From: Nemertoderma westbladi
Lineage: Eukaryota; Animalia; Xenacoelomorpha
Direction of reading: 5' to 3'
NCBI GenBank assembly: GCA_032718475.1
Contig: JAUCBJ010006757.1
Coordinates: forward strand, 1 to 64,000
Length of the DNA: 64,000 nucleotides
Every line of letters starts with the position of its first letter. Position 1 is the first letter of the stretch. Under the pieces are notes generated by a model. That model was not told where the DNA came from, ran no database searches, and saw only the letters and a program-made list of their open reading frames with translations. Shown in pieces: positions 15,079 to 64,000 of the stretch. The position numbers and the translations under genes are program-made.

Positions 15079-16346
15079 TGTAAAAGCTTTTGCGGATATA
15101 ACAAGCCATTTTTCTCCGCAATATACTGTGTAGGTGTTTTAGCGGACATAACAAGCCATTTTTACCCACTATGTCTGCATGTGTGCTTTAGCGGACATAA
15201 CAAGCCATTTTCTCCGCAATGCACTTAATACTCTAAAAGATGACTCAGATGACGCAATCTGTCAGCTGATTTACTGCCAACGCCATCTTCTCAACGCCAA
15301 CTTATCTTTGTTCTTTGTTCGGCTCAGCCAATCAGAGCGATTTTCACTTTGTGTTGGACAGTGCCTACAGAAACCCACGCAATTCAGTCAGTGTGTATCT
15401 TTTCTAAGCCCAGAACACCGGCTTAGGATTCTTCTGTACTTCTGTGGAAGTTTCAGACTTTGAACTAAACATCAGAAACATCAGATGGCTTTGATTACAA
15501 GAACGTAAAACTATTAACGATTCAACTACTGAATCATTGCTGAATCATACTTCATATCTGAATCACTGAAACATCGCCACACCGCAGCACTACGCAACGC
15601 GATTCAACTACCGCATCACACCGCAATTCATGCATTGCTGCACATGGAACACTGCATAAGTAACACATACTGACTGTTCACCGCATTATTTGATTCTGTT
15701 ATTACTTGGTGTTTATGTTGGTGTATATTGCTGATATATTTGGAGAATACCGATGAATAATCATAAAACCCTCAATCTTCTTGATTACTAAAGGTTAGAG
15801 GAACAGGTTTACCGGTAGCAACTGCGACTTACATCATAGTGGTTTTTGTGTGAATTGAATGCTATTTCATAATCCCTACATGTGTCAGTTGCGATCCTCC
15901 TTATATATGATCAAATTCAGTGACGGTCGGCAGATCAGTGCGCAGTAGTGTGAACTAGTGTGAAGTCGTGTGAAGTAGTGTTAAAGTTAATAAAGCATCT
16001 CCTAAAGAATGCGCTTTTTACGAAACTCAGTAGCCATCCAGTTGTGATTAGTATAAGTCATAACTCTGTTTTATACTTAAAGCGCCACGTCCTAAAGGAA
16101 CTGTTAATATTTCCCCGAAAGTGAATAATATTGTCAGAGATTATATATTGATGATCAATCGAATAACAGTAGGTCTACACTGCAATCACTATCAAAGCAT
16201 CCGAATCCAGTCTCCCTTAACTGTGGTTGAATGGTCGCGCACAGGCTGGCTTCGGCTGATGTAACTTCAGTACATTAAATAATCGATATATAAAAAGACA
16301 ATTAAAATTGGCAGGTTAAACTGCTAAAGGTCTAAAAGCGCGAACA
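15079..16346 (+). repeat. 3' LTR of copy A (1268 bp)
   Basis: TGTAAAAGCTT...GCGCGAACA termini match those of B and C. It has a CCAAT box (gccaatcagagcg, ~15327) and three ~55-bp U3 repeats (gcggacataacaagccatttt). Confidence 0.92.
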
Positions 16347-24380: not shown

Positions 24381-26013
24381 TACCATGCCGCCATGTGTAA
24401 TTCAAAATAATGTACATTCAATAGTGCATTATTCATAGGTCTAGGGATACAATTACCTACGCCATTGTACTGTGTAAGGACTACAATATATTATTTTATG
24501 CTACAGTGTTCTTACTGTACTTCAATGGTATCAAGGGGGGTGAAGGCCATGGAGCGCAAATAACTTTAAATTATTGAATAACGTAAAGTGTATCCAAAAG
24601 AAAAATTGCATAAAATGAGAATGATATCCCAGGTACGAATCTTTACAATTTACATAATTAACATAAAGAAATTGTATTAAATTTAAATTTAATTTCATTA
24701 TATATTTTGTTGTACAGTATATAAATTTACAATTATAGCTCAGTTTCCAATGCTAAATGTTTCTGAGAGAGAGTGGTGTGGGTGTAATGACAGTGGAGGT
24801 GGAAAAGGAGCCTCGGATTGCATCCTATGTTATTTATTTTTTCACGTACACTAGGCCTACGTTTACACTTATGCGTTACACTTACGTTTACTTTTACTCT
24901 ACTTATAGTGATAATAATTTTAAATAAATTCAAAAAATAAAATGATGAGGTAGGCCTGAATCAAAAAATTGTCTACGGCTTCTATTTAGAGATATACAGT
25001 ATACAGTTTATAGCAATTAATGCGAACAAGGCCAGTACAAAAAGTTAATTAATTCCCCATTGAATGACAAAAATTATCACAGAACACTTAATTCACTTTT
25101 GAAGAATGGCATTAATTAGACCGTTTAATCAATCGGCAATCAATGCAATCAGAGCATCCAATTAATATACGAGACCTAATTACAGTAAGAATACAGTATA
25201 AATATATACTGTATTATAATTCTCGTTGGGACCAGCTTAGCAAATACGGCAATGATATTCAGGTGGGATCGAACTGGTGACCTTCAGATTAGAGTTACCG
25301 GAAACACTAACTGATATTTTGTGTCCCCAATTAACGTCATCTTGTCAATACCAATCACCTGCTGTCCGCCCACCCAATAATAATTATTATACAGTATCTC
25401 TGCCGCGCTCATCTCGATGCTGTAGACAATTTCATTTATTGTTGTTTATTAATTGTCAATCGCATCAATCACGGGCAACCTGCTGCGTGCAGTGATTACT
25501 TTGGGGGTAGGCCTACTGTAGTAGCAAGTCTCTCCCAAGGACAGGGACAGAATGTCAAACCACCCCCCTCCCCCCCCCCCCCCCCTCATTAAATGTAAAC
25601 TAAAGAGTTAAATATGGAAAACAAATTTTGCTAAGGTGTGTATAACCGTGCAATAAATATATAAATGTGGCATTTACAAATACTGCTACTCACAACAAAA
25701 TACTGTAAGGTTGTGAATTTTGATTTGTGGTGAAGGTGAAAATAATTTATTTTAAGACCTCAAACGTTTATTGACAATTAAACAACAATTACCTAAAAAC
25801 AAAAGATTTAGAAAAAAAGGACATGAAAACGCCATGTGAAGAATACCAGGGTTTCACTTTTAGTCGAAATTACATTGGAATTTTAAAATGTATCATCGCA
25901 GTATTAATTGTGAAAATTATTGTGCGAATTTATTAAAAGTGAAAATATAACAACATAAAATCTGGTATAGGCCTACTTCACATGGCAGTATGGGCCCATA
26001 AAAACTCACTGCC

Positions 26014-27187
26014 TGTTTGCGCTTTTAAGACCTTTGACAGTTTAACCTGCCAAAATTAGAATGTCTTTTGGATGATAGATAGTCTTTAGCCTATGACGAG
26101 TATTTGATACACTACATTAGCCGAAGCCAGTCTATGCGCAATCATTCACCCGTTGGATATACCCGGGAGACTGAGTTCGGGGCTTAATGATTGATGGTGT
26201 AAGCCTACTGTATTATTCGACTGATCGTAATATATAATCTCTGACAAATATTATTCACTTTCGGGAAATATTAACAGTTCCTTTAGGACGTGGCGCTCTA
26301 AATATATAAACAGAGTTATGACTTAAACTAGACACAACGAAAAGGCTATAGATTCACGTATATGGCACATTCTTTAGGAGATGTTTTGTTATCAGTTACA
26401 CTCATACACAATGCTGCACAATACTGCACACTAATCTGCCGACCTTCACTAAATTTGGTCACGTATAAAGAGAGCAACAGACAATTTATGTTGGGCATAT
26501 GAAATAGCATTAGATTCACTTCAAACCACTCAACATAGGTCGCAATCGTTTATCTGTAACCGGTCTCTCTAACCTTTAGTATATCAAGAAGGTGGGGTGT
26601 CTGACTATTGATCAGTATTCCGATATAATATTTCATCAACCAATATAATGAATAACCGACAGTAAAAGCAGTAATATTAATGTATAAATGATTATTAAGT
26701 GAATGAGTTAACTTGTGTAACTCGTGAGTAGTTAAGATAACAGATATACGTTCTATAATTGAGCCTACTAATGTAAGACTAAAGACTGAAACACGGAGGT
26801 GCCAAAAGCCGGTTCTTAGGCTCTGGGCAAAAACATAACACTGAACTACTGAGTTCTGTATACACCTCCAACACAGAGACAAAAAACGCTCTGATTGGTC
26901 AACCGAACAACGAGAGAACAAAGAAACAAAGAAACGTCGACGTGGCAATATCAGCTGTTAGCCGTCGTCATGGTAGCGACACTGTTTTCAAGAGTATCCA
27001 GCTTATCGCGTCACGAGATTGCGGATTATGTCCTCTAAAGTACAAATACAGTACAAATACAGAAGAAATGACTTTTATGTCCTCTAAAACACCAGTACAG
27101 CAAGGACACGGCCTTTTTATGCCTGGCAAACCAACTACAGAGTACTTTAAGGGAAAATAACCGGTTAATGACGCAAAAGCTTTTACA
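26014..27187 (-). repeat. 3' LTR of copy B (1174 bp)
   Basis: Direct repeat of 40906-42074, differing by about 14 substitutions and 3 small indels by eye. Confidence 0.97.
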
Positions 27188-27197
27188 CCGCTCCCAG
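27188..27197 (-). other. Polypurine tract of copy B
   Basis: Minus-strand ctGGGAGCGG abuts the 3' LTR. Confidence 0.75.
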
Positions 27198-27265
27198 AAA
27201 ATGGGATTTAAGTCTATAAAATATAACAAATCACAGTTTCTAAAATATAAAAATACTCTAAACAG

Positions 27266-30426: not shown

Positions 30427-33400
30427 TTAAGTTGGGGAGTCCCTAGATGTGGGTTGGATTAGGGAAGTGGTCGTGGGAAGAGTTTCTTGCCTTCCATAGT
30501 TTCCGGAGAGCTCTCTGTCTCTTTCCAGTAAACATAAACGACCCACTGGGCGGTTGATCTGTTGAGTCTCAAAGACTATCCCTGGTTTCTTAAAGTTACG
30601 CCGCATGACGACGAGTTCTACTGATCGCACCAAACCATCGCTCGAGATATGAGTCTCGATGATACGTCCTGTTTGCCATCGCTTACGTGGGAGATTGGGG
30701 TCCACAATAAGCACCATGTCTCCAGCGCTGACGTTTTCTTGCTGCGCAAACCACTTAGTTCGAAGTTGTAGAGTGGGCAGGTAATGTTTCTCGAAATGGT
30801 CAGCGAAACGACGGGATAGCAACTGCATAAGTTGCCAGGTTCGACGGCAGTACTCGTCTCCGTCTGTGATCTCCGATCGTGGGAGCATGGCTACGGGTTT
30901 CTTCAGTAGAAAGTGCGCGGGTGTTAGCGCTTCCTGGGAATCAGGACTTGAAGAGACTGGCATAAGCGGTCTTTCGTTGAGATAGGCGGCGATTTCCTCC
31001 ATTAACGTCCGCAATAGTTCGTCGGTGAGATAAGCGCGACAAGGTACAATAAAGTGGAACGCAGTCTTCACGCTCCTAATCAATCTCTCCCAACTTCCTC
31101 CCCACCAAGGGGCGTCGGCGGCGTTGAAGGTCCAGCTAGACGCTGTTATCTTTAGCTGATCGTCCACCTGTCTTTTGTTCCAGTCCTTTACGTAAGCTTG
31201 AATTGCGTTGTTGGCGCCAATGAAGTTCGTTCCCTTATCCGATCTCATTGTGTTACTGGTTCCGAAACGAGCGATCTGTCGTCGTAAACTCAACACGAAG
31301 CTGTTGGTGGATAGATCGTTTACCATATCGAGATGGATAGCTCTACAAGTCATACAAACGAAGATGACACACCATCTCTTGACTATAGTCCGGGCACGAT
31401 ATACTTCAATAGGGCCAAATAAATCCACACCGGTATTAGTAAAGGGTGGTTCGTAGAAGCTTACTCTTTCCCTAGGTAATTCTGCCTCTCGCTGTGTCAA
31501 AGGCCTACTGAATGCTTTCCTACAAGGTATGCAGTTCCTAAGGACTTGGTTCAGAGCCCTACGGGGTTTATAAAAATAGAAGCGAGTTCGAATTTCGCTC
31601 AGAACTCGTTCTCTTCCAGCATGATACAGTTTGCTATGAACATCTACAATCATCTTGATTTGTATGTCAAGATTTCTAATGAGTATGGGAAATTTAGTGT
31701 CAAAGGATAATGGGGCGTTGGTAAGCCTACCTCCAACACGTATTAACCCATCTATCATGGTACTAGAGAAGCGATCCCTTAAGCGCATCTGCGGATTTCT
31801 TAACAACAGGAAATACTTATCGGAATCCTCATAGCATTGTAGGAGTCTTAGCATCTGTTTGTTGGTTTCATCATGCTCCTGGTAACTGATCTTCTCCTTT
31901 AGAAACCTGTCGGATATCTTGTATTTGGGAAGATCTTTAACAACATGGACTCGTGCAGACGTTGATGGAGCATCATCACTATTGGTCTTTGTCCCGGAGT
32001 AACGATGATGAAAACATCGTTTTAAATAGGTGACGGCTTTACAGAGCCGATTCCAGGAGCTGTAGTGACGTATCGCTCTCTGCAAGAGGGGTGAGAGTCC
32101 TTGCGCGATATCTGGTATTCCAGATTTCCAATCCTTGTCACGGATTTCCAAGACTTCTTTAGTCGTGGCGGTGGGTTTCTGATCCAAAGCATCCTCTCCG
32201 GAAGTAAATAATACAGATAGATCAACCGCAGGTTTAAACAACTTCGATTTACTCGCTCGAGTTTTGGGTTTAACTTTCTCCGCTCCCTTGGCCTGTCTGA
32301 TCTCTGCTGTTGTGAGATGGGGAGGCCATTCTTCTTCTTCTCGGTAGAGAAAGTCGGGTCCACCTAACCATTCGGGAGTGTTTACCAATTCCTTTGGAGT
32401 CGCTCCTCGGGAAGCGATGTCTGCTGGATTAATCGTTCCGGGGCAATGTCTCCATTGGTCCATCGTCGTGCGACTAAGTATGATGGCTACTCTGTTGGTA
32501 ACGAAGACGCTGAACTGACAGACTTCATTGGTTATATACTCTAACACGAGTAAAGCGTCGGTCCAATAGACAGTTTTCTCTAATGGATAGTCAATCTGTT
32601 CTGTTACATTCCGGCCGATGGCTGTAGCGTATAGAGCCGCTTTTAACTCCGCTCGAGGAACTTTCAACTTGTTGTTGATTAATGCCTTAGAAGTAACCAA
32701 GGCGACTTTGATTCCATCCGGAGTTTCCACTCTTAGATAGGCTACTATACCTATTCCCATATCGCTGGCGTCTCCAAACACATGGAGTTGATAGGAATAC
32801 GTAGGGAGAACATGACCAAAATATGAATGGGAAATTATAAAATCCTCGATAGCCGGCAGAGAATCTTCCCATTTCATCCACTTCTTTAATAATTCTCCCT
32901 TAAGTGGATCGTCCCATGAGTGGTTCTCAAGCCACATTTGTTGTACCAAACTACGAGCAATCAATATAACTGGGCTAATAAATCCCAATGGATCGAAATA
33001 AGTGCTCAGTATACTTAAGCAAATCCGTTTGGTTCGAACTGGATTATCTCGCTGTTTTAGCTGGAAAAACAGGATATCTCGCTCTGTGTCCCATTTCAAG
33101 CCGAGTGTCTTGGTTTCTGGCAGATCATCTTTGATCAAATCTAGATCTTTCGCCCCTCGATCTTCCGCAGGGATCGACTCCAGAAACTCACGGGAGTTGC
33201 TGGTGAATTTCGTTAATCGAAACCCACCTCTTTTTAAGCACTCTACCGTTCCTTTAGCGACCTCAATGGCTTCTTCAACTGATGGGAGGGACTTCAGATT
33301 ATCATCCATGTATATGTCCCGCTTGATGTTGTCGATCACTTCCTTAGAGAAGGCCTCTCGGTTGTCCTCTGCAGTGGTACGCACTACCGAACAGGCGTTG

Positions 33401-36400
33401 GAAGGGCTTGAGATTATCCCAAAGGCCTGGATGGTCATCCAGTACTCCACCGGTTTCTGGTTGAGGTCTCCTTCGGGCCACCACAGAAATCGTAGACTAT
33501 CTCGATCCCTATCTAACACCTTGACTTGTAAGAACATGCCTTCTATATCGGAGGCGAAAGCAATCGAATATTGTCTCAATCTTAAAAGAATTCCCAACAA
33601 AGATTGAAGTAAGTTGGGTCCGGGTAACAATTCAGAGTTAAGGGATTGACCCATGTAAAGAGCGGAGCCATCAAACACTACTCTCACTTCATGTGGCTTA
33701 CCGGGTTTAGGGACGTAATGGTGAGTTAAGTAATACGTTCTTTCAGTCACAGGTGTTTCTTCCGGTACTCTCTCCGCGTATCCCTTACTAATAAATTTAT
33801 CCAGCTGTGTTTGATACATTTCTTTAGCTGAAGAATTAGCCGTAAGGCGTCGATGGAGTTGCGCGATTCTTTTTTCCGCCAAGGGTCTGTTATTGATGAA
33901 CTTCGGTTCTCTCTTGCGGAAAGGTAGACCGACTTCATACCTACCTTGATCTTTGAGGAAACGCGTAGTGGTTTCTTGGATCTGCTTGGCCCTTTCCTCT
34001 TCCACCGATAAGGCTTTATCGTAGGAATTGGGCTCTACCGCCTCTTGCGTAAAGAATCGTACGGCATGTTCATCTCGAGTCTTGGCATTACAACGCTCAA
34101 TGACGTCATTTAGCTCGTCGTTATAAGCTTCTTGTTCAGATGGATAAAGAAGTTGACATAAGTTCACTTGGTTTTGCCAAGCCTCATTTTCCTTAAGGAG
34201 ATCGATGGTATTCTCCTCATCAAAAAGCTGGTGAACGTCGTCGTTATCTGAGGAGTATGGGGTTCCCGCAGTTAAATCATCTCCCTCACTAGTATCATCT
34301 TCCCATTCACTCACCTGGCAGACGCGCTCTTGCGGTAGTCTTTCTCTGAGTGTTCTACGGGAAGGGCCAGTGAAGTACCAACCTACTCTAGTTCTTACCG
34401 CATAGGTCTGTAGTGGTTGCGGTTGAGCAGGCCGTTTCTCTAATGTCTCCAGCGCCTCATGCGCGTTTTGGCCGATGAGTATTTGCACTCCAGGATAATC
34501 AGTCTGGAATCGAGGTATGTTAAGATGTTGGATGCTCTCATCCTCGTCCCAATTATAAAGGTCTGCTTGAGTAGTAGCGAAGTTCTTTATAGCCACCATT
34601 TTCACTGACCTTATGCTATGTTCTCCTAGTTCGTCTTGTGGGGTGGACAACGCACCTACATAATAATCAGCTGTTACTGTAGATTTCCAAACTTGCATAA
34701 TGCCGGACATGTTTAGCTTAGTTCGGAACTTGGGTTGTCCAGCAAATATGTCTTCGGCTAGCTCTTTGTCGATGAATGTTCCTGTACTACCGGAGTCAAG
34801 GAGGGCGTTCACTACATAACTCCTCTTAGGTCCGTGAACCCTTACCTGTACCACAGGAAACTCTCGGATCCCTACATTGGAAGATGGCTCTTTCCAAGAT
34901 GGTTGTCTATCAGAAGTAGTTAGAGTGAAGTCGCTGTCTGTATCTTTTTCATATGTGAGTGCTCGATACACTGCGGTATTTATCATGTAACAGGATTCGT
35001 TTTCGTCGGAGAACTCGTCCGTATAGAATCCTTCCATCTCAGATTGATCAGTGTCGTTCACATCACTGAATTGGACATGTAGTTCGGAATCACTTACCTG
35101 ATTCGGACTATTTCGCTCGAATTCAGCGTGCAACAAGATATGATGTTTCGCACCACACTTTGCACACCTTATGTCCGAGTAACAGGTTCGCCGTTGGTGT
35201 CCTTGTCTGAGGCAATTATAACATAACCGCTTATCCCACATGACTTCTCGTCTCTCCGTTAATGATTTCTTCAGGAATTCCTCACACATATTCAAACGGT
35301 GGGTCCCGTCACATAGCGCACATTTCGGTTTGATGTTACTCACCTTAATCTGAGTCACATTGTGTACACTTGCTTTTTCTTCGGGCTTTCTCACCTGAAT
35401 TCTCTTGGGAGACGTAGGAGGAGTTTTTCTGACCTGTTCTCTCCTGTCATTTGTTCGAGACTTGAATTTACTTACCTGATCTTTAGGCATTTTATTTACG
35501 TAATAAGATCTATCAGTGTCTTTCCCGCTATCTTCTCCTTGAGAAGTCTGGCTTTCGCCGTCGTCTGTATAACACACTGGTGTTACCTTTCTCCTAGAGA
35601 CGGGTTTTTCACTTACCTTGTTTTCCGGTGTCTTCTCTCTGGACAGTTTCAGGAGCTGTAATTTCACTTCTCCATCTAGGAATGACATGAGATCAGCCAT
35701 GGTAGGGTCTCGTCGTTGTTGTTCCATCATATATAACACTTTCTTATCCCAGCGTGTACCTACTCCACCCTTCGGTAAAGTAGAAGCCACTGCTCTAATA
35801 ACCATAGCATTCTGATACTCATGAGACTTACCTAGCCAATCTAATTGTCTACAGATCTCCTGAATCTCATCGGAAAACTCTATAATTCCGCTGCTAATAA
35901 ACTTTCGGGGCGCTACCAACTTTGCATACAAATACCCAGCTATGTTATTCCTATTACCATACCTGATGTTTAGTGTATCCCAAACTTGTCTTAATCCGTC
36001 TGGATGTCCAATAAACTTTAACGCCATTAACTTGGGAGATCCTTCCAAGCACTCGATGAGGAATCTAAGTTTCTCTCCATTAGATAGCACAGAGTTCTGT
36101 ATGTTATCTTTGTAATATTCATTAAAAGGTAACCATTTCATCTCATCTCCATTGAACTTGACGATCTCTCCCACCTTTACCGCTTGCCGGGCTTCGGTTC
36201 TAGCCATTTGACGCGTAAAACTTTCTTGGGCCATCGTGTTATTTAATATCGAGTTATCGGTATATAAATTTCTCGGATTATGATCTGGTCTATAGGGAAT
36301 ATCATTATCAACAGGTCTATAATTACCCTTAATAGGGTTCACTATAGGAGTTTCTACTTCGCTAGCAGTATAGATGCGTGTAGGCTCCACACCTTGCGCA

Positions 36401-38595
36401 TGAGATACTTCAGACCTAACAGGTTGACACATTGTTACAAGGGGTGGTGGTATATCCTTTTGTGCATTTACTAATTTATCGCGTTCTAGCGCGATACTTT
36501 GCTGCACTTCTTGCAACTCTAGCCTACTTTCCCTTACTGTGCCTTTGAATTGTTGAACAGTCTCCTGCATCTGTCCGAGCAGGAGATCCATCCCCCGTCG
36601 TCTCTCATCCACCCATTCGACCGCCGAAGCGGGATTCGCCAACGTTGTAGCGGGCGGACGAGGGACAACGGGCGACAAATCTTGAATATTTCGCTCGGAG
36701 TCCAGGGTATGAACTGTCTCACGGACTGTTCTGCTGGGCACAGGTAGCTTAGTGCTGTGCAAAGGGAATTGTGAGGTAGGTTCAGGGAGTACAGGTGTCT
36801 CTACGACCGAAAGAGTAGCTTCGGGAACAGGCCTAATTATTTCAGGCTCATCTACTATAGTAGGGAGTCTCTCTATTGTAATAATTTGGTCTGTGGGTTC
36901 TGTACTCGCTAAGTTGGTGTTATTTAGTTGCCTTCTAACAGCTGGAGGCAAATCAGGCAATTTCCGACGGTGGAATGTTCTTTTACGTCTGCTTAGGCGA
37001 GATCGATTTCCTCCGCCTTCAGTGTCGGTGGTATCGCCTTCCTCAGATGATGTATAACCTTGTCGTTTGGGAGTAGATCGATTCATCATCTGCATATTAC
37101 TAGCTGTTAACTGTTTATTAACGTTGTCTTGTCTCTCTTGAAGATTTTCCAACTCTAGTTGGGTTGTCTCTTCAGATGCCCTCCGTTCTGCTTCTGCCAC
37201 TGCTATTTTTCTTTCCGCTTCGGCCGCCTTTCTTTCCGCTTCTGCTGCTGCCACCTTTCTTTCCGCTTCGGCCGCCTTTCTTTCGGCTTCTACTGCTGCA
37301 GCTGCCGCTTTTGCCTCTGCCGCTGCCGCTTTTGCCTCTGCCGCTGCCTCTGCCGCTTTTCTATCCACTTCTGCCGCTTTTCGTTCCGCTTCTGCCGCTG
37401 CCACTGCCGCTGCTGCTGTCTTTCTATCTTCTATACGTTTTTTCTTTACTTGTTCTTCTTGAACCTTGGCGATGCGGAGTTGTTCATCGAATTTAGCTTG
37501 GTTCGCCGCTAACCTATCCACATCAATTGCATCCAACACACGCTGGGCTCCTTCACTATTAGGACTAAGTCCCGCTAACCTTCTCCTCAACTCTTCATCT
37601 CCCAAAAAACGCTGATAGTCTGACAGATAGATGTCAATGGCATCCCTCTTATGCGGTTTCTCTGCCGTCGCTTCACTTTCCACTTGGGAAAAAGTAGCGT
37701 CCGTTGATTCTCCATGGGTTGAGCGCTCCTCCAGCTGAGCTTTCCACTGAGCTGTTCCTTGAACCTGGCGACTCACCCGTTGAAACCAAGTCTTTACGGC
37801 AACCTGCAACGACGTGTCTTGTCTTCTTTTAGAAGCCTCTTCAAAGGCTGATAATATTAGCCTGATTCGCAGAATTCTTTCTCTAACTTGATAAAGCAGT
37901 TGTCCCTGCTCTTGAGGTCCCTTTGGTTGTTGAAACAGTTGTTTTTCTACTCGCTCCATAGAGCTGAAGAATCCCTGTGCGTATCCGGCTGCGGACCTCT
38001 TCCACACAGCTGGATCGATGGTTTCCTTGGCTACTCCCATCCGGTGTATGTCTTCCCAGGCAGCTTCTGATAAATCAAATGGGAGTCCGGGTCCGGGGAA
38101 GTTCCATTGTGACTCGACCATAGACTTCAGTTCTTCCCTTGTGTATCCCTCATATCGATCTTTAGTTGATCGCTTACTTCTCGCCCAATCGATCTGGTGT
38201 TCTTCCACCGCAATCAATAACCTAGTGAGTACGGCTGCAGGAAGGATGAGAAGGGGATCCGAATAAACCGCATCCGTCATCCTTGCTCCGCGCTCGGGTG
38301 TCAGTTCTACAGTATCTTCACTACTGGAGCTGTCGGGCCGCTGAGAAATAAGTTCTTGGCTCGCGGGTTGTTGCTGTTCCGCTGCTTCTTGGTCCCGCTT
38401 GACCTGAGCTCGAGTGCCTATGATAGACCTACGATGTTGGACCAGCCTAGGTTCTGTTATTACTACTGGAGGGATGACCTTCCTCACAGTGGGAGGTGAA
38501 CTGAACTTAGGACTAGACGGTTCTACACCTCTGTCTGAGTCGCAGATAGTTACATCTAATAAACTGTCTGACAGGTTCTGTTTAGTATCAGACAT
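30427..38595 (-). CDS. BEL/Pao gag-pol polyprotein (~2722 aa): Gag with three zinc knuckles, aspartic protease, RT, RNase H, integrase
   Basis: Uninterrupted ORF with ATG at 38595 (the track starts at an upstream GTG, 38607). Motifs in order: IVKFNGDEMKWLPF, CALCDGTH, CYNCLRQGH, CAKCGAKHH, ALLDSGS, RVVFDGS, DIEGMFLQV, YMDD, LHVFGDAS, YWTDA, NPADIASRG, H-H..CIPC, GVDLFGP, SDKGTNF, WGGSWERLI, WQTGRI..DGLVRSV. These motifs and their order are diagnostic of BEL/Pao. Confidence 0.98.
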   Translation of the reverse strand: MSDTKQNLSDSLLDVTICDSDRGVEPSSPKFSSPPTVRKVIPPVVITEPRLVQHRRSIIGTRAQVKRDQEAAEQQQPASQELISQRPDSSSSEDTVELTPERGARMTDAVYSDPLLILPAAVLTRLLIAVEEHQIDWARSKRSTKDRYEGYTREELKSMVESQWNFPGPGLPFDLSEAAWEDIHRMGVAKETIDPAVWKRSAAGYAQGFFSSMERVEKQLFQQPKGPQEQGQLLYQVRERILRIRLILSAFEEASKRRQDTSLQVAVKTWFQRVSRQVQGTAQWKAQLEERSTHGESTDATFSQVESEATAEKPHKRDAIDIYLSDYQRFLGDEELRRRLAGLSPNSEGAQRVLDAIDVDRLAANQAKFDEQLRIAKVQEEQVKKKRIEDRKTAAAAVAAAEAERKAAEVDRKAAEAAAEAKAAAAEAKAAAAAVEAERKAAEAERKVAAAEAERKAAEAERKIAVAEAERRASEETTQLELENLQERQDNVNKQLTASNMQMMNRSTPKRQGYTSSEEGDTTDTEGGGNRSRLSRRKRTFHRRKLPDLPPAVRRQLNNTNLASTEPTDQIITIERLPTIVDEPEIIRPVPEATLSVVETPVLPEPTSQFPLHSTKLPVPSRTVRETVHTLDSERNIQDLSPVVPRPPATTLANPASAVEWVDERRRGMDLLLGQMQETVQQFKGTVRESRLELQEVQQSIALERDKLVNAQKDIPPPLVTMCQPVRSEVSHAQGVEPTRIYTASEVETPIVNPIKGNYRPVDNDIPYRPDHNPRNLYTDNSILNNTMAQESFTRQMARTEARQAVKVGEIVKFNGDEMKWLPFNEYYKDNIQNSVLSNGEKLRFLIECLEGSPKLMALKFIGHPDGLRQVWDTLNIRYGNRNNIAGYLYAKLVAPRKFISSGIIEFSDEIQEICRQLDWLGKSHEYQNAMVIRAVASTLPKGGVGTRWDKKVLYMMEQQRRDPTMADLMSFLDGEVKLQLLKLSREKTPENKVSEKPVSRRKVTPVCYTDDGESQTSQGEDSGKDTDRSYYVNKMPKDQVSKFKSRTNDRREQVRKTPPTSPKRIQVRKPEEKASVHNVTQIKVSNIKPKCALCDGTHRLNMCEEFLKKSLTERREVMWDKRLCYNCLRQGHQRRTCYSDIRCAKCGAKHHILLHAEFERNSPNQVSDSELHVQFSDVNDTDQSEMEGFYTDEFSDENESCYMINTAVYRALTYEKDTDSDFTLTTSDRQPSWKEPSSNVGIREFPVVQVRVHGPKRSYVVNALLDSGSTGTFIDKELAEDIFAGQPKFRTKLNMSGIMQVWKSTVTADYYVGALSTPQDELGEHSIRSVKMVAIKNFATTQADLYNWDEDESIQHLNIPRFQTDYPGVQILIGQNAHEALETLEKRPAQPQPLQTYAVRTRVGWYFTGPSRRTLRERLPQERVCQVSEWEDDTSEGDDLTAGTPYSSDNDDVHQLFDEENTIDLLKENEAWQNQVNLCQLLYPSEQEAYNDELNDVIERCNAKTRDEHAVRFFTQEAVEPNSYDKALSVEEERAKQIQETTTRFLKDQGRYEVGLPFRKREPKFINNRPLAEKRIAQLHRRLTANSSAKEMYQTQLDKFISKGYAERVPEETPVTERTYYLTHHYVPKPGKPHEVRVVFDGSALYMGQSLNSELLPGPNLLQSLLGILLRLRQYSIAFASDIEGMFLQVKVLDRDRDSLRFLWWPEGDLNQKPVEYWMTIQAFGIISSPSNACSVVRTTAEDNREAFSKEVIDNIKRDIYMDDNLKSLPSVEEAIEVAKGTVECLKRGGFRLTKFTSNSREFLESIPAEDRGAKDLDLIKDDLPETKTLGLKWDTERDILFFQLKQRDNPVRTKRICLSILSTYFDPLGFISPVILIARSLVQQMWLENHSWDDPLKGELLKKWMKWEDSLPAIEDFIISHSYFGHVLPTYSYQLHVFGDASDMGIGIVAYLRVETPDGIKVALVTSKALINNKLKVPRAELKAALYATAIGRNVTEQIDYPLEKTVYWTDALLVLEYITNEVCQFSVFVTNRVAIILSRTTMDQWRHCPGTINPADIASRGATPKELVNTPEWLGGPDFLYREEEEWPPHLTTAEIRQAKGAEKVKPKTRASKSKLFKPAVDLSVLFTSGEDALDQKPTATTKEVLEIRDKDWKSGIPDIAQGLSPLLQRAIRHYSSWNRLCKAVTYLKRCFHHRYSGTKTNSDDAPSTSARVHVVKDLPKYKISDRFLKEKISYQEHDETNKQMLRLLQCYEDSDKYFLLLRNPQMRLRDRFSSTMIDGLIRVGGRLTNAPLSFDTKFPILIRNLDIQIKMIVDVHSKLYHAGRERVLSEIRTRFYFYKPRRALNQVLRNCIPCRKAFSRPLTQREAELPRERVSFYEPPFTNTGVDLFGPIEVYRARTIVKRWCVIFVCMTCRAIHLDMVNDLSTNSFVLSLRRQIARFGTSNTMRSDKGTNFIGANNAIQAYVKDWNKRQVDDQLKITASSWTFNAADAPWWGGSWERLIRSVKTAFHFIVPCRAYLTDELLRTLMEEIAAYLNERPLMPVSSSPDSQEALTPAHFLLKKPVAMLPRSEITDGDEYCRRTWQLMQLLSRRFADHFEKHYLPTLQLRTKWFAQQENVSAGDMVLIVDPNLPRKRWQTGRIIETHISSDGLVRSVELVVMRRNFKKPGIVFETQQINRPVGRLCLLERDRELSGNYGRQETLPTTTSLIQPTSRDSPT

Positions 38596-38719
38596 GTTGG
38601 TTTGCACAGTTGAATGCCTACTGCTATATTACAGTTTAAGCAAGTCTAGTAATTCAGAGTTAACTGCTAGCCTAGTAATTAATTACCGATACTGCTACTC
38701 AGTGTAGCGTGATATATAT

Positions 38720-39120
38720 AATATATTAGAATACCGGTATGCTTATTGCTTATAGTATATATAACTATATAAGTATTATTACAGACTAGGTTTATCACAG
38801 AATACCGGTATAATTTTAGCACAAATATATATAAATATATAATAGGCCTATCGGGAATACCGGTATACAGCTTACAGTTTGTAGTATATATAATTCTGGA
38901 CTAGAATTAATTACAAGTACCGGTATAATTTCAGCCTAAATTTATAGAAATAAAGATAATAGGCCTATCGTAAATACCGGTATGCAGTTTACACTTATAG
39001 TATATATATATAAGTATAATTACAAACTAGAATTAATTACAGAATACCGGTATGATTTCAACCTAAAATTTATAGAAATAAATATAATAAGCCTATTGTA
39101 AATACCGGTATATCAATTAT
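38720..39120. repeat. ~100-bp degenerate AT-rich tandem units (aataccggta / aggcctat) in the leader; also at 6390-6650 and 61735-61990
   Basis: Recurrent ataccggta and tatagtatata in all three copies, with different unit numbers. Confidence 0.75.
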
Positions 39121-40054
39121 TTTAAATAACTGAATTTCTGAATTTTAAGGGTTACTTGGTTACTTTAACTTACTTTATTGCCGTTATTTAAGCAGTAGTC
39201 CAACTGATATTGAGACCTAATTGTTGTATGGCAGGCCTACTATTTATAAATCGTTTGAGTTGATTTATAATATATATATACCCGTTTAATGGGTTTTGTC
39301 AATGTTGAAATAAATGTTATTATTTCTGGGGAGTCACTACACATAAGCAGTGCGCTCTCAGTGGAGTGCTACTTGTTGGACACTAAAACAAATAATTCTA
39401 ATTTAACTAAGTTACTTAATACTACAAATTACGTACAATTCGGGTTGAGATTACAATCTCTAAATAAACACAAAAATTTACAAAAAACACAAAATACGAA
39501 ATTTTAGGGTAATTTTACAAGAAGTCTACAAACCAGCCTGACAAAGGGTTAGAATCTGGTTATTACAACGGACAGGGTACTACGGTATTTGAAAATAATA
39601 AGTAGTAGTAAATACACTGCGTTGTCCAGATAGGAAAATACCACCGCCTGACGACCTATAGCCGTATCGCTATAGGTACTACGTTATGTATCACGGAGTG
39701 TTCCTACCTAGAAGTTAATAGAGCTAATCGAACGTGCCTATCAACCACTTTACAACACAAATATAATGTCTACACTAATTACTTTCGGAAAGCACTGTAC
39801 ACTAAACCCTAAATTAGGTACGAGTACTTGTACAACATATAATCAGTAGTTAAATATACTTGAACAGCTAAAAGAACCACGGCATCTGCTGGAGTGACCA
39901 AAGCACAAAATCTCCAGTCTTTACCTACGCCGAGCAGCCCTGATGTAGTACCGGGGTTAGTTTAACTATAATGGTATGTATAACAAACACAATTACTGTA
40001 GGAATAAACTTGGGGATATGAATGTTGCGAATAATCGCATAAACTCTGAATAAT

Positions 40055-40625
40055 AAATATTACGCTACGCGTACAGACCATTCAAACAAAATGCAGACCA
40101 AATACTGACAGACTACTATCAAGCCTAAACAAACTACGGTATATGCAGACTCCGAAATGATTAAGTAGTATGCGTTCTAACCCAGTAGTACGACTTATTC
40201 TTTAGATGGGGGTTTACCTTACAGCGATGGCTGCCCCTACTTCCTAACCGTTCTTTATCGGACAGATGCTTTGCACACACCGAAATTTCCTCAAACCCAA
40301 CAACAGCCAGACAACTATCCAGCCTACAAATTATCTAAATAAAATTATACGCTACCCGTACAGACTACACAAACAAAGTACAGACTAAACGATGGCAGAC
40401 TACTCTCAAGCCTAAATAAACTACAGGACAGGCAGACTCCGAAATGATTAGGTAGTATGCGTTCTAACCCAGTAGTACGACTTATTCTTTAGTTGGGGGT
40501 TTACCTTACAGCTTTGGCTGCCCCTACTTCCTAACCGTTCTTTATCGGACAGGTGATCTACACACACTGCAATCCGTTCAGACTTAACAGCAATCAGACA
40601 ACAGCCCAGCCTACAAATTGTCTGT
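40055..40625. repeat. ~286-bp tandem duplication in the leader of copy B
   Basis: gcagactccgaaatgatta.gtagtatgcgttctaacccagtagtacgacttattctttag occurs at ~40145 and ~40432; C has a single copy (~63008). Confidence 0.85.
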
Positions 40626-40894
40626 ACAATATGATCAGGCTTACACGCCTTCTGTTCAATACTGGCCTACAAATAAATAAAACTGACAGAAATAGGCCTA
40701 AGTAAAATCCCAATAAAAACCAGGCGTCCCCGATTAATTATTAAGACCTACCGGCATATAATTATCAAAATCGAATAATACTGCTGTACCTATACTGCTG
40801 TAGGTACCGGTCCGGATGATCAGGCAGTCAGGCCTACAGGTTTCCGGTCGACCGGTACTTTCGACTAGATTGCTTACACCGCAATCCAGAAGCA

Positions 40895-40905
40895 ATATCT
40901 GTTAT
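40895..40905 (-). other. Non-tRNA primer-binding site of copy B (ATAACAGATAT), complementary to an LTR-internal 11-mer
   Basis: It abuts the 5' LTR and has no TGG. It is the reverse complement of 26737-26747 (11/11) and 41623-41633 (10/11). Confidence 0.75.
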
Positions 40906-42074
40906 TGTTTGCGCTTTTAAGACCTTTGACAGTTTAACCTGCCAAAATTAGAATGTCTTTTGGATGATAGATAGTCTTTAGCCTATGACGAGTATTTGAT
41001 ACACTACATTAGCCGAAGCCAGTCTTATGCGCAATCATTCACCCGTTGGATATACCCGGGAGACTGAGTTCGGAGCTTAATGATTGATGGTGTAAGCCTA
41101 CTGTATTATTCGACTGATCGTAATATATAATCTCTGACAAATATTATTCACTTTCGGGAAATATTAACAGTTCCTTTAGGACGTGGCGCTCTAAATATGT
41201 AAACAGAGTTATGACTTAAACTAGACGCAACGAAAAGGCTATAGATTCACGTATATGGCGCATTCTTTAGGAGATGCTTTGTTATCAGTTACACTCATAC
41301 ACAATGCTGCACAATACTGCACACTAATCTGCCGACCTTCACTAAATTTGGTCACGTATAAAGAGAGCAACAGACAATTTATGTTGGGCATATGAAATAG
41401 CATTAGATTCACTTCAAACCACTCAACATAGGTCGCAATCGTTTATCTGTAACCGGTCTCTTTAGTATATCAAGAAGGTGGGGTGTCTGACTATTGATCA
41501 GTATTCCGATATAATAATTCATCAGCAAATATAACGAATAACCGACATTAAAAGCAGTAATATTAATGTATAAATGATTATTAAGTGAATGAGTTAACTT
41601 GTGTAACTCGTGAGTAGTTAAGATAACATATATACGTTCTATAATTGAGCCTACTAATGTAAGACTAAAGACTGAAAACACGGAGGTGCCAAAAGCCGGT
41701 TCTTAGGCTCTGGGCAAAAACATAACACTGAACTACTGAGTTCTGTATACACCTCCAACACAGAGACAAAAAACGCTCTGATTGGTCAACCGAACAACGA
41801 GAGAACAAAGAAACAAAGAAACGTCGACGTGGCAATATCAGCTGTTAGCCGTCGTCATGGTAGCGACACTGTTTTCAAGAGTATCCAGGTTATCGCGTAA
41901 CGAGATTGCGGATTATGTCCTCTAAAGTACAAATACAGTACAAATACAGAAGAAATGACTTTTATGTCCTCTAAAACACCAGTACGGCAAGGACACGGCC
42001 TTTTTATGCCTGGCAAACCAACTACAGAGTACTTTAAGGGAAAATAACCGGTTAATGACGCAAAAGCTTTTACA
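40906..42074 (-). repeat. 5' LTR of copy B (1169 bp)
   Basis: Direct repeat of 26014-27187, followed by the TSD. Confidence 0.97.
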
Positions 42075-44239
42075 CTGCCGATGTGAAAGGCCTACTAAAC
42101 CAGTGGAATTTGTGAGCATAAAAAAGGTCCCCCGTGCTCTGACAAATCCCAGTCAAGTTTATAATACTGTAGGCTAGGCTAAGCTGCTAAGCACTGCTAG
42201 CGTTTTGAATCCGTATTCACGAAAGTAGGCATTGTATTACCCAGCAAGGGAGTTACTAGGTGGGTATTCCCTACTGGCAAATAACTCGCCTTAAAGTCGC
42301 CTTAAATTCACGTAAAGCAAACACATGGTAAATACCTCTAACATTCACTAACAAAGGTCTTTGGTAGCGGTGTTTACTACAGGTAATTACTGGACATAGT
42401 AAATTTTGTCTAATGATATTCACAAAATAAAAGTAGATATTACCCTCGTCTTTAGAGGCAGGAAATACCTAAATTTGCTGGAGGAGGGATAGGGATCTAC
42501 CAGCATTTGGTAAACAATTTGGTAAAGCATTTGAATTTTGATCTACAATAACAGAATAAAGAGGCTACAGAAACAATATCAAACACAGTCAAAAATTGCT
42601 TCAGTGACATGGGCACAAAACTTAACAAAAATTGCAGTGGCGAAAGGCGATATAAACAGCTGACAAACACCTTAGTAGTGTTACCATACCAGTCCGTACA
42701 TTGAAATTGAAACATTATTTCTGCAGTTTGCTACCGGTACTGTACCGTGTACCGGTACATTGAAATAGAAACATTATTCGCAGTAGAGCTAGGCCTACCT
42801 TTTATTTGAATTGTACTGTAATTGGCTAACACTAACACTCTCCTATAGCCAAAAGGTGTGCAGGTGTCCCAGGCGAGTCTGCCCCTCCCCACCAAGGAAT
42901 GCCCCCCTCCCCAAAGACTTACCGGTACTATAAGTACAGTATAATAATACTGTAGTAGGCCTAGCGTACCGTACAGCACTTTAACTTGGATTTATTTGTT
43001 TATTTTTTTTTGGTTAGGGTTAGTTTGTACTGTATGGCAGGCCCAAACCCTATTTAAAACAGTCATGTAATTTCGTAAATTACCATATTGGCCCTTCGGG
43101 GCAATGGCAAGGCAGCAAGGGTCCAAAATTCCACAAAATTTATTAAATTAGACCCTCATGCATGACTAGGGTTAGGTTTACATGACAGTTTTAATTAGGG
43201 CTTCGGACCGCCACTGTCGAAATTTGGGGTGAAAATGCCGTGCGGGGGGGGGGCATTTTCGCCTGTGACACCGGTTCGGCCCAAACAGCCAAATGCCCAG
43301 TCACCAGAACCGGTTTCGGTTGGGGAAAAGCTCTTTTCTTGAATGCGTACATTTTACCTACTTTACTACTTAGGTATTAAACAGGTAAATCATAATTATT
43401 TTGTCTAATTCACGAATGTTTGGTGTTATATTATAGTATATGTTACCGCACTCTTTATTGGGATTAATTAATTAACAATAATACTAAATGCCATATACAA
43501 TATACTGTACATAATAGTACATTTCATACTGTTACCGGTACTTGTTTAAATGCTACTGTATGTTACTTTTTACTTTCATTAATTGTTTTTGATAGCTACT
43601 GTAATATGGCTATCCCCCCAAATTCTGCACAGGCGAAAAGTGCTGGCAACCAACTGACAATTGTACTTGTATATGTAAATGGTGCCAAAATAGTGTAGTA
43701 CCGGTACTGTACATACCTGTCCATTATAAACACTGTTCTAAAATACCGAGTTTTTGTTAGTCACTTAAAACTGCATTGTACCTTTACAAGATTTGAAACA
43801 ACCATTAATAATAAGGTGTTTGCCAGCATGCCGTATCCCACCACTGCTAATTTTATCGACTGTGTTTCTTATGTTTCTGTAGCTCCTTTATTCAGTTATT
43901 GTACATCAAAATTCAACCAAATGACATCATTAAGGGATAAATTCAATGTACTAATAATTGATGATTGATGACATAGGCTTAATTATTATACTGGTTACTA
44001 CACTAGAGTACCTGTTTGCCGGTACTACTGTACTGTACTTGTACTGCAGTACTAACAAACTGTAACTTCGGTAGGCCCTAGCTAATTTCTCAAATTGTAG
44101 GCCTATTAAACAATTATTCAATTGTTTATTTACCAAAGGCCTAATAATCTTAGATAGTCCATATAAATTGACGGAACTGGCTCACTGGTATTGATTTGTA
44201 ATCACAGAACTCCAAACTCAGCCCTGTTTCACGTTCACA

Positions 44240-45343
44240 ATGTCTGATATCAAGGAACACAGCTCATTGGCTAACTTCGCCCCGGGGCCGGCCCGTATAT
44301 CCACCGAAGTCCTCGTCAAGGCCCAATCGGAACTGCTCAGTCTGGACCACACAGGGATCAGTCCGTTGGAGATGAGCCACAGATCGGCCCAGTTCGACAA
44401 TATAAACAACGAGGCGGAGGCCAACCTTCGAGAACTCCTAGACATTCCACCCAACTACAAAGTAATCTTCATGCAAGGCGGAGGTCACGGCCAATTCGCG
44501 GCCATTCCTCTCAATCTCCTCCCTACAGGTGGCGAGGCGGATTACATAGTTAGTGGGACTTGGAGTCAGAAAGCCTTTAACGAGGGAAAGAAGTTCGGCA
44601 AGATAAACTTGGCGGCGCAACCGGACCCGTTTACATCGATACCTCCGCAGGAGTCCTGGAAGATCAGCGAGAAATCGTCGTATCTTTACTACTGCGCCAA
44701 CGAAACGATTCACGGGGTTGAATTCTCGTTCGTTCCCCAACACCCCAGCGGCGTCGTTGTTGCCGATGTCTCTTCCAACTTCCTTTCCCAACCCATCGAC
44801 GTCTCCAAGTTCGGGATTCTCTACGCCGGTGCCCAGAAGAACGTCGGACCTTCGGGTTTAACAGTGGTTATAGTTCGGGAGGATTTAATAGGTAATCAGA
44901 AACCGAATTGCCCTGCGATATTGAACTATAAGTTGTTCGCTGACGCGAGAAGTTTGTACAATACGCCGCCGACCTTCAATATTTATTTGGCTAATTTGGT
45001 TTTCCGATGGATTAAAGAGAAGGGAGGTTTGGCGGCTATGCGGGATCTCAGTGTCCGTAAGTCGTCGTTGCTGTACGATATTATCGGGAATTCCGGCGGT
45101 TTCTACCGCTGTCCCGTTGATCCCGCGTGTCGCAGTAAGATGAATGTTGTGTTCCGTGTTGCTGGAGGCGATGTGGGGGTCGAGAAACGGTTTCTTACTG
45201 AGGCAGCCGGTCGAGGGTTGGTTAGTCTGGCAGGGCACCGCTCGGTTGGAGGGATAAGGGCGTCGTTGTATAACTCGGTTACCGTAGAGGACACCGAGAA
45301 GTTGGCCGGGTTTATGAAGGAGTTTATGGAGAAGGAACAGTGA
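44240..45343 (+). CDS. PSAT1: Phosphoserine aminotransferase (class-V PLP enzyme), single coding exon, 367 aa
   Basis: NFAPGPA, LEMSHRS, QGGGHGQF, YCANETIHGVEF, DVSSNFLS, AGAQKNVG (PLP lysine), YNTPP, RSKMNV, GHRSVGGIRASLYN. Full length with animal-type wording. Confidence 0.97.
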   Translation: MSDIKEHSSLANFAPGPARISTEVLVKAQSELLSLDHTGISPLEMSHRSAQFDNINNEAEANLRELLDIPPNYKVIFMQGGGHGQFAAIPLNLLPTGGEADYIVSGTWSQKAFNEGKKFGKINLAAQPDPFTSIPPQESWKISEKSSYLYYCANETIHGVEFSFVPQHPSGVVVADVSSNFLSQPIDVSKFGILYAGAQKNVGPSGLTVVIVREDLIGNQKPNCPAILNYKLFADARSLYNTPPTFNIYLANLVFRWIKEKGGLAAMRDLSVRKSSLLYDIIGNSGGFYRCPVDPACRSKMNVVFRVAGGDVGVEKRFLTEAAGRGLVSLAGHRSVGGIRASLYNSVTVEDTEKLAGFMKEFMEKEQ

Positions 45344-49000: not shown

Positions 49001-49324
49001 CTCACCCAAGGTAAGGTGAGAGCCTCCCTCCCTCCCTAACCCAAAGTAAGTTGAGAGCCTCCCTCCCTCCCTAACCCAAAGTAAGTTGAGAGCCTCCCTC
49101 CCTAACCCAAGGTAAGTTGAGAGCCTCCCTCCCTCCCTCACCCAAGGTAAGGTGAGAGCCTCCCTCCCTCCCTAACCAAAGTAAGGTGGGAGCCTCCCTC
49201 CCTCCCTAACCCAAGGTAAGTTGAGAGCCTCCCTCACCCAAGGTAAGGTGAGAGCCTCCCTCCCTCCCTAACCAAAGTAAGTTGAGAGCCTCCATCCCTC
49301 CCTGACCCAAAGTAAGTTGAGAGC
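46020..49324. repeat. 35-bp minisatellite, roughly 90-95 copies: CCTCCCTCCCTCCCTAACCCAAAGTAAGTTGAGAG
   Basis: Directly visible; period 35 (e.g. 46151 and 46186). Confidence 0.97.
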
Positions 49325-54113: not shown

Positions 54114-55341
54114 TGTTCGCGCTTTTGAAGACCTTTAGCAGTTTAACCTGCCAAAATTTATGTCTTTTAGTTAATTAACACACCTTTAGCATACGACAAT
54201 ATTTTATGCTAATAAACAAAACATTAGCCGAAGCCAGCCCATGCGCGATCATTCACCCGATGGATCTACACCCGGGAGGCTGAATTCGGATGCTTAGATT
54301 TTATTATTGCAGTGTAAGGTTGCAGTGTAAACCTATTGTATTATTCGATAGATCGTTAATATGTAATTTCTGACAGATATTATTAACTTTCGGGAAATAT
54401 TAACAGTTCCTTTAGGACGTGGCGCTCTATCTATTTAAACAGAGCTAGGACTTATACTAAACGCAACGATAAGGCTTATGATTAAAGTATAAGTCGCATT
54501 CTTTAGGAAATGCTTTGTTACCAGTCACATCACACTCACAATCATGCACACTATTCTGCCGACCGTCAGTATATTTGATCACACCTAAAGAGAACAGCAA
54601 TTGACTCAGGTAGTGTCTACTAAATAACATTAGATTCAATACACACCACATTGATATAAATCGCAATTGTTATATATAGCCCGCCTCTCTAACCTGTAGT
54701 GTATCAAGAAAATTGGGAATTTTGGGTGATTTATCCGTATTCTCCAAAGAGCAATATTTCCATCAACAAATAGATACAATTAATAACTGACGGTAAATAG
54801 CAGTACAAACAATATGATTAGTGCAGTTAAATTAAGTGAGGTAACACCGCCGGTAACAGTTATACTTTCTATAATCTAAGCAGTTTTACTAGAGTTCTTA
54901 GAGCCGGTGTTTCTGGCTTAGACAGCAATAACAACAAAGTATCAAGTAAAAGCAGTAAGACTGAACACTCTCCTTATGATCGGCTGAAAAGCTACACGTC
55001 GACAGGAAAAATCGCTCTGATTGGCTCAAGCCAAACAAAGAACTATGCGTCCAATGGATGTTTCCATGTCAGCAACCAGCTGTTAGATGTCGTAATATGA
55101 ATCATCACGGCTAAGCTGTGAAAGGTAGTTGGTGCATTACAGGTTTTTTGCCTTACCATGTCCGCCAAAACACGTATATAGCAGAATGACTTTTATGTCC
55201 GTTAAAACACCTGTAACGGTACCTTGCGGGCGAGGGGAATATATATACAGTTAGAGAACCTTTTTAGAGTATTCCAGCGCCTGGGGGGAAACTGGATTGC
55301 GAAGCAAAAGGGGCCAGTTATATCCCACAGAAGCTTTTACA
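54114..55341 (-). repeat. 3' LTR of copy C (1228 bp); PPT at 55342-55351
   Basis: TGTAAAAGCTT...GCGCGAACA termini on the minus strand; ctGGGAGCGG PPT. Confidence 0.95.
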
Positions 55342-63469: not shown

Positions 63470-63480
63470 ATAACTGTTAC
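63470..63480 (-). other. Non-tRNA primer-binding site of copy C (GTAACAGTTAT)
   Basis: It abuts the 5' LTR and is the exact reverse complement of the LTR 11-mer at 54853-54863. Confidence 0.75.
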
Positions 63481-64000
63481 TGTTCGCGCTTTTGAAGACC
63501 TTTAGCAGTTTAACCTGCCAAAATTTATATGTCTTTTAGTTAATTAACACACCTTTAGCATACGACAATATTTTATGCTAATAAACAAAACATTAGCCGA
63601 AGCCAGCCCATGCGCGATCATTCACCCGATGGATCTACACCCGGGAGGCTGAATTCGGATGCTTAGATTTTATTATTGCAGTGTAAGGTTGCAGTGTAAA
63701 CCTATTGTATTATTCGATAGATCGTTAATATGTAATTTCTGACAGATATTATTAACTTTCGGGAAATATTAACAGTTCCTTTAGGACGTGGCGCTCTATC
63801 TATTTAAACAGAGCTAGGACTTATACTAAACGCAACGATAAGGCTTATGATTAAAGTATAAGTCGCATTCTTTAGGAAATGCTTTGTTACCAGTCACATC
63901 ACACTCACAATCATGCACACTATTCTGCCGACCGTCAGTATATTTGATCACACCTAAAGAGAACAGCAATTGACTCAGGTAGTGTCTACTAAATAACATT
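63481..64000 (-). repeat. 5' LTR of copy C (partial, cut by the window end)
   Basis: Repeats 54114 to ~54631 almost exactly. Confidence 0.95.

Follow-up and report, generated by a model that had tools for sequence, protein, structure and literature searches.

A family of BEL/Pao retrotransposons in Nemertoderma westbladi probably primes minus-strand DNA synthesis with an 11-nt segment taken from its own transcript, in place of a tRNA supplied by the host. The putative primer lies within the long terminal repeat (LTR) and is complementary to the 11 nt that directly follow the 5' LTR, at the primer-binding-site (PBS) position. Self-priming had been proposed from the sequence of two copies. That proposal is supported by our analysis and strengthened by ten independent BEL/Pao relatives and by the fixed length of the pairing.

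An 11-nt self-complement in a BEL/Pao family

The window, a stretch of 64,000 nt, contains three related LTR elements: copy A on the plus strand and copies B and C on the minus strand. Copy B (42074-26014, minus strand) measures 16.1 kb overall. Its 5' LTR (40906..42074, 1169 nt) and 3' LTR (26014..27187, 1174 nt) both run TGT...ACA on the minus strand and are equal in 1153 of 1167 aligned columns. They are flanked by a 5-bp target-site duplication, GGCAG, upstream (42075..42079) and downstream (26009..26013). A single gag-pol frame lies between the LTRs (30427..38628, minus strand; 2733 aa from stop to stop), with Pfam matches to DUF1759, an aspartyl protease (weak), Peptidase_A17, the integrase H2C2 domain and DUF5641. 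Motif reading gave the order protease, reverse transcriptase (RT), RNase H and integrase, and an RT YMDD motif and RNase H-like acidic residues were read by eye. A short polypurine-tract-like stretch (27188..27195, minus strand), identical in all three copies, adjoins the 3' LTR.

Peptidase_A17 (PF05380) was present in all 120 homologues listed for copy B, at identities of no more than 45%; those named among them come from sea urchins, corals, amphioxus, mussel, hemichordate, nemertean and fish. Because of the DUF1759, Peptidase_A17 and DUF5641 domains and the occurrence of Peptidase_A17 in every listed homologue, copy B is assigned by its protein sequence to the BEL/Pao lineage. A quick RT-RNase H tree gives it a long branch (1.87), and its placement within BEL/Pao is uncertain.

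Copy C has a 3' LTR of 1228 nt (54114..55341, minus strand), equal to that of B in 834 of 1115 aligned columns, and a 5' LTR truncated by the window end (63481..64000, minus strand). The two C LTRs are equal in 518 of 518 aligned columns. B residues 1472-2056, the RT/RNase H region, had no tblastn match in C. LTRs identical over these 518 columns, together with the missing RT/RNase H region, suggest that C was probably mobilised in trans. For copy A, the 3' LTR is present (15079..16346, plus strand) and the 5' LTR and PBS both lie outside the window; the same RT/RNase H region is absent, and stops and frame changes are present. Public contigs from a single organism contain the LTR in many repeats: 10,381 and 2,324 contigs from two runs aligned to 1.7 kb.

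Several features within and around these elements were recorded in passing. The 2733-aa frame of B compares with about 2000-2100 aa in most homologues, and some 800 aa before the DUF1759 region of its gag (36150-38628) contain alanine/glutamate/lysine-rich repeats. Between the B stop codon and the 3' LTR lie 3.2 kb (27188-30426) that are 85-90% alike among the three copies. Here A and C hold frames of 213-251 aa with no Pfam match and B holds none of at least 200 aa; this region is possibly a decayed extra gene. Tandem duplications occur in the 2.3-kb leader of B at 40045-40623 (287-nt units) and 38766-39112 (128-nt units). Elsewhere in the window are an uninterrupted class-V aminotransferase frame of 382 aa between repeats (44195-45343; PF00266, E 1.7e-43), a fragment of another reverse transcriptase with DUF6451 that probably belongs to a non-LTR element (52355-53113), and an open frame of 399 aa with short repeats and no Pfam match (573-1772, minus strand). 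Tandem arrays occupy 46020-49324, 18040-19783, 21094-21916 and 23562-24043, with units of 35, 36, 68 and 54 nt, respectively.

In copy B, the PBS position comprises the 11 nt directly after the 5' LTR (40895..40905, minus strand; ATAACAGATAT in element sense, 40905-40895). The 3' LTR contains their exact complement (26737..26747, minus strand; ATATCTGTTAT, 26747-26737), and the 5' LTR copy (41623..41633, minus strand) is complementary at 10 of 11 positions, with a mismatch at 41629. In copy C, the corresponding 11 nt (63470..63480, minus strand; GTAACAGTTAT, 63480-63470) carry two changes relative to B, and its LTR 11-mer, known from the 3' LTR alone as the 5' LTR runs past the window end, carries both compensating changes (54853..54863, minus strand; ATAACTGTTAC, 54863-54853). 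On re-reading, the coordinates and strings originally given for all five stretches were correct. Copy A has a homologous 11-mer that differs from those of B and C (15507..15517, plus strand), its partner lying beyond the window.

The exact complement was borne out in C and in the 3' LTR copy of B. The LTR 11-mer lies 734 nt (B) and 750 nt (C) from the LTR end, as had been claimed, and alignment confirmed that the two positions are homologous. Pairing comprises 11 Watson-Crick pairs counted from the first base after the terminal CA of the LTR; C has an extra G-U pair on the 5' side of the primer. The absence of a tRNA-type PBS also held, since neither B nor C has TGG at any of offsets 0-5, and no tRNA genes were found in the window.

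Both differences between B and C, at PBS positions 1 and 8, are compensated on the two partners, as had been described, despite LTRs that are only 75% alike; this within-family covariation comprises two positions from the two PBS copies in the window. Cognate duplexes have predicted energies of -10.5 and -11.7 kcal/mol and are 4-6 kcal/mol stabler than the crossed B/C duplexes (-6.5 and -5.7 kcal/mol). The duplex of the B PBS with B's own 5' LTR copy reaches -4.1 kcal/mol. Since C and A both have the base of the 3' LTR at the place of the 41629 mismatch, this mismatch most likely reflects decay after insertion. An exact complement was found in 13 of 8000 dinucleotide shuffles of the B LTR and in 4 of 8000 for C. 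When every internal position was scanned for an 11-mer with a complement in the LTR, 3 of 13,718 (B) and 4 of 8,139 (C) qualified, position 1 being among them in each element. Judged from the sequence, the 11-nt self-complement is a genuine, non-random feature.

Public contigs gave a view of the junction across the family. Among the 27 longest of 594 pieces matching the C PBS, 17 run through the PBS and end at 63470-63472 (positions 9-11), 7 end at 63477-63481 and 3 extend to 63461. Because most of these listed pieces leave C at PBS positions 9-11 and only three go further, the block common to family copies extends about 11 nt past the LTR, not the 18 nt of a tRNA site. In run X1, the summed depth dropped from about 540,000 where the LTR ends to 96,000 over PBS positions 9-10, 23,000 over positions 11-12 and 1,700 beyond, with the caveat that contig depth does not equal copy number and contig ends blur the profile. 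Of the contig variants across the whole LTR, none of the 40 listed (from 291) fell within the PBS or the 11-mer.

Distant relatives with putative primers split by LTR introns

A scan of prokaryotic genome contigs (GTDB collection) revealed 15 BEL/Pao loci (L001-L015), several complete with both LTRs. These are probably animal host DNA binned into bacterial metagenome-assembled genomes. Protein scans of viral and metagenome contig collections found no relative, and a search of viral and metagenome contigs with the LTR-end pattern gave no match. Ten of the 15 loci, from seven assemblies, had a readable LTR-PBS junction and were counted as relatives (L001, L011, L012, L014 and L015, with unreadable junctions, were excluded). 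All ten contained Peptidase_A17.

None of the ten relatives had TGG at offsets 0-5. At these same offsets, nine had an 11/11 self-complement, which was contiguous in one (L002) and present in the other eight only across a GT-AG intron in the LTR. The tenth, L003, forms 10 of 11 pairs, again across a GT-AG intron. Five relatives (L002, L003, L008, L009 and L010) were bounded by two LTR copies, and four of these five had the perfect self-complement; for L004-L007 and L013, the LTR end was set by eye with knowledge of the match. The offset range of 0-5 was used as a range of 0-3 misses L002. An unanchored scan for splice junctions returned 10 matches, and because 4 of these lay away from any LTR end, we adopted the anchored rule with decoys. 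Decoys, which were positions from each element's own interior treated under the same rule, matched at rates of 0.0010-0.0051 per element.

The LTR introns of L003-L010 and L013 are 137-1022 nt long, and in each the junction is complementary to the PBS. In the eight with a perfect complement, they split the primer as 3+8, 5+6, 6+5 or 7+4, with GTAAGT, GTGAGT, GTATGT or GTATAT as donors. Two primer positions distinguish L008 from L010, and each of these changes is compensated across the splice junction. Nested in the BEL/Pao copy of L009, at 3365-8084, is another LTR element, which has LTRs of 331 nt and no TGG after its 5' LTR.

With one PBS common to L007 and L009, there are nine distinct PBS sequences among the ten relatives and 11 among the twelve elements when B and C are included. 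Such diversity bears on the idea that the 11-bp helix is structural, hiding or presenting the PBS or serving packaging or translation, and that priming is done by some host RNA, for instance an internal fragment of a tRNA. Half-tRNA priming is known for some Ty1/copia lineages, according to the accessible text of a plant survey (PMC6317226), and other conserved helices are found in the LTR end and leader. A primer supplied in trans would keep the PBS constant, whereas each of the 11 PBS sequences is matched by the element's own LTR. Nor is there a structural reason for a fixed length of 11 pairs flush with the LTR end. Watson-Crick pairing ends at 11 positions in all 12 elements, and none of the 24 flanks extends it (one forms a G-U pair). 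With a chance of about 1/4 per flank and about nine independent lineages, we estimate the probability of no extension at roughly 1 in 200 to 1 in 300. A structural helix combined with a host primer is accordingly rated as quite improbable.

A self-derived primer could also act without a 5' fold-back, either in trans from a second RNA or from the 3' repeat near the poly(A) site. Such priming would still be tRNA-independent. By construction, each LTR copy contains the 11-mer. Of the 9 intron-split relatives, 6 have a poly(A) hexamer 0-33 nt beyond the end of the primer, which would place the 3' copy near the RNA end. Set against this, copies A, B and C have no conserved poly(A) hexamer near the 11-mer, and a spliced 3' copy would presumably cost the progeny its intron, yet 9 of 10 relatives retain introns. 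We consider this route unlikely, and favor fold-back within the 5' part of the transcript.

The relatives raise a further question, namely whether the family in the window also splices its primer. A donor after the sixth base of the 11-mer could be joined to an acceptor-like site about 33 nt before the LTR end, giving a 10-pair primer. This site, TTGGCAG/GTTA, lies in the loop of a conserved stem-loop (40924..40947, minus strand), 32-34 nt from the LTR end in all three copies. In B as in C, the junction would pair at offset 1 with 10 Watson-Crick pairs, the 11-mer stands at the donor place of the relatives and the acceptor-like site at their acceptor place, and the latter begins with GTTA, the same as primer positions 7-10. 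The donors would be GTTATC/GTTACC, whereas 8 of 9 relatives use donors of the GTRAGT/GTATGT type, and in copy A the GT is missing from this place. In addition, the unspliced form pairs at 11 positions, and its last base covaries with PBS position 1, which would be unpaired after splicing. Because the donor is poor and absent from A, and because the acceptor-like site is a conserved hairpin loop, we rate splicing here as very improbable and retain the contiguous 11-mer as the candidate primer. The acceptor-like site and the donor-placed 11-mer are possibly a relic of ancestral splicing.

Another conserved motif, AG/GTTAGAG (26567-26575, 54687-54695 and 15792-15800), is donor- or acceptor-like, lies 168-285 nt after the 11-mer and has been lost from the B 5' LTR by a 7-nt deletion. 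As a donor to the acceptor-like site it was rejected, the junction yielding no PBS complement. Run X5, whose RNA nature is a guess, contained two joints; neither is bounded by GT-AG on the strand of the element, and they speak neither for nor against splicing.

In a quick tree of 49 RT-RNase H rows, which contained no tRNA-primed reference, the relatives are spread over several well-supported BEL/Pao subclades. By these sequences, the self-complement is not peculiar to the family in the window. The original prediction that self-priming arose convergently in this family thus found no support, the signature spanning several such subclades.

Transcription start and RNA folding

Transcription had been proposed to begin at the 11-mer itself. 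Promoter motifs did not support this start. What we take to be a CCAAT box (41780..41785, minus strand) lies 151-179 nt upstream of the 11-mer, and TTCAGT (41727..41733, minus strand), presumably an initiator and a rival start, lies 98-124 nt upstream. Both are conserved in A, B and C, and none of the three copies has a TATA box at -30 of the 11-mer. Among the relatives, TCAGT lies approximately 90-100 nt upstream of the primer in L008, L009 and L010, and presumed TATA boxes lie approximately 100-240 nt upstream of the intron-split primers in L005, L006, L008 and L010. Were transcription to start at an intron-split primer, a first exon of 3-7 nt would be needed.

While these motifs point upstream, folding favors the 11-mer in B. 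With an RNA that starts at the 11-mer, the 11-bp helix is part of the lowest-energy fold of both B and C (pair probabilities 0.65-1.0), and the helix as a whole has a predicted probability of 1.0 in B and 0.96 in C. Extra upstream RNA lowers the value for B to 0.52 at 10 bases and to at most 0.01 at 20-120, while C remains at 0.44-0.89. When B is folded with its own 5' LTR mismatch, the predicted probability of the helix drops to about 0.01, so that it is missing from the prediction. On balance, we regard a cap located at the 11-mer as somewhat doubtful. A cap at this place would set the 5' end of the primer without a second cut; if the primer is instead internal, its 5' end would have to be fixed otherwise than in Tf1, the self-priming element of Schizosaccharomyces pombe.

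Tf1 requires two further helices beside the PBS in a three-helix structure, as described in the available text of bioRxiv 10.1101/2022.12.06.519325. Candidates for flanking helices of this topology are present in the window family, although the models suggest them weakly and they are weaker than in the Tf1 model. On the LTR side, a 6-bp helix pairs 41029..41034 with the LTR end at 40909..40914 (both minus strand), ends 3 nt before the PBS and includes one compensated change in B relative to C and A. It forms in the B fold (0.88) and is absent from the lowest-energy fold of C. On the other side, the best LTR partner of the leader that follows the PBS lies about 200-230 nt before the LTR end in each of B and C, with differing letters. 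In B, the LTR arm at 41089..41097 (minus strand) can pair with +26..+34 after the LTR (40880-40872), and C has a different pairing at the homologous place, both weakly supported. This post-PBS helix was equalled by 7 of 60 shuffles in B and 1 of 60 in C, and a local hairpin competes with it.

A search of 40500-42200 against Rfam gave no match at E up to 1. A separate, highly conserved LTR block of about 40 nt (41173-41192 in B, 54409-54428 in C and 16079-16098 in A) coincides with the maximum of contig depth and has no Rfam match; our guess is that it is a packaging or 3' end signal.

A proposed self-priming scheme and its relation to known systems

In the scheme that we propose, the LTR 11-mer of the transcript would fold back onto the PBS. 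By analogy with Tf1, a cut, probably made by the RT/RNase H of the element itself, would then free the 3' end of the 11-mer, and the new 3' OH would be extended into the LTR. The 5' end of the primer would be either the cap, as in Tf1, or the product of another cleavage, within a leader beginning about 100 nt upstream. Plus-strand synthesis would finally copy the still-attached primer back into the PBS. Copy-back of a retained primer is suggested by general retroviral replication and reportedly occurs in Tf1 as well. Because a copied-back primer would make both partners change together, this step would explain the covariation of primer and PBS and the fixed length of 11 nt. As the primer of the window family is contiguous, it could be used without splicing, whereas most relatives would have to build theirs by splicing of an LTR intron.

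We tentatively extend this scheme to the wider lineage. Much of BEL/Pao could have exchanged the tRNA for an internal 11-nt self-primer that is cut at both ends and is mostly assembled by the spliceosome from two LTR exons. The window family would be a splice-independent derivative, with its primer at the ancestral donor and the old acceptor about 33 nt before the LTR end. This broader history is conceivable, and we hold it with less than even confidence.

The closest parallel is found in Tf1/Tf2 of S. pombe (Tf1/sushi), which likewise lack a tRNA site and whose PBS is complementary to 11 nt of the LTR. In the accessible text of PMC7175516, the first 11 bases of Tf1 pair with the PBS and RNase H cleaves between bases 11 and 12. 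Tf1/sushi elements are Ty3/gypsy chromoviruses, whereas the window element is BEL/Pao and has no integrase chromodomain match (E up to 1). By its DNA sequence, the window element likely works like Tf1 without being a member of Tf1/sushi. Unlike in Tf1, a distance of 734-750 nt separates the primer from the LTR end, and the primer may be away from the cap. The primers of most BEL/Pao relatives further differ in being split by an intron, a division not described for Tf1/sushi in the portions of the cited papers available to us.

Other self-priming groups belong to different superfamilies. In its accessible text, the plant survey names only Tf1/sushi, Tcn1 (gypsy) and TAR/Houba/Osr-1 (copia) as self-priming (PMC6317226), and Tj1 is likewise described as self-priming in the text seen of PMC4600332. 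The plant Tcn1 and TAR/Houba/Osr-1 groups were predicted from an LTR complement of at least 10 nt starting 0-5 nt after the 5' LTR (PMC6317226, same text), and B and C both contain such a complement. Tcn1 and TAR/Houba/Osr-1 differ from the window element in superfamily and host.

BEL/Pao elements, by contrast, are described as tRNA-primed. This statement of the original prediction agrees with the ICTV account of the animal-wide Belpaoviridae (PMC8742986), which gives host-tRNA priming from an 18-nt PBS for tRNA-Arg or tRNA-Gly and calls replication poorly understood. The window element resembles Belpaoviridae in its LTRs (up to 1.2 kb in that account), its single gag-pol frame with the order PR-RT-RH-IN and its polypurine tract. 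It departs from the account in overall length, with 16.1 kb for copy B compared to 4.2-10 kb, and in having an 11-nt self-complement instead of the 18-nt tRNA PBS. As the PBS is a described trait rather than a lineage criterion, we file the element as a BEL/Pao lineage that departs from the ICTV description.

The superfamily is divided into the groups BEL, Pao, Tas, Suzu, Sinbad, Dan and Flow in the accessible text of PMC3118150. Full-text searches of a collection made up mainly of open-access papers showed no description of self-priming in BEL/Pao; an earlier remark on single elements, for instance in Repbase or GyDB, is possible. Within the text available for each, the BEL/Pao surveys PMC3118150, PMC554778, PMC2774666 and PMC6238403 contain no discussion of the PBS that we could find, PMC8220671 makes generic mentions only, and PMC3601003 and PMC13524379 hold nothing on the BEL/Pao PBS.

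If the proposal is true, none of the three large superfamilies of LTR retrotransposons is without self-priming, and BEL/Pao adds forms beyond that of Tf1, in which the primer is distant from the LTR end, possibly off the cap and, in relatives, spliced. Splicing of the 5' repeat only would restrict the primer to the correct RNA end. Self-priming would also explain why tRNA-based PBS searches fail on many BEL/Pao elements, and neither the supply of tRNAs nor fragments of them would then control these elements.
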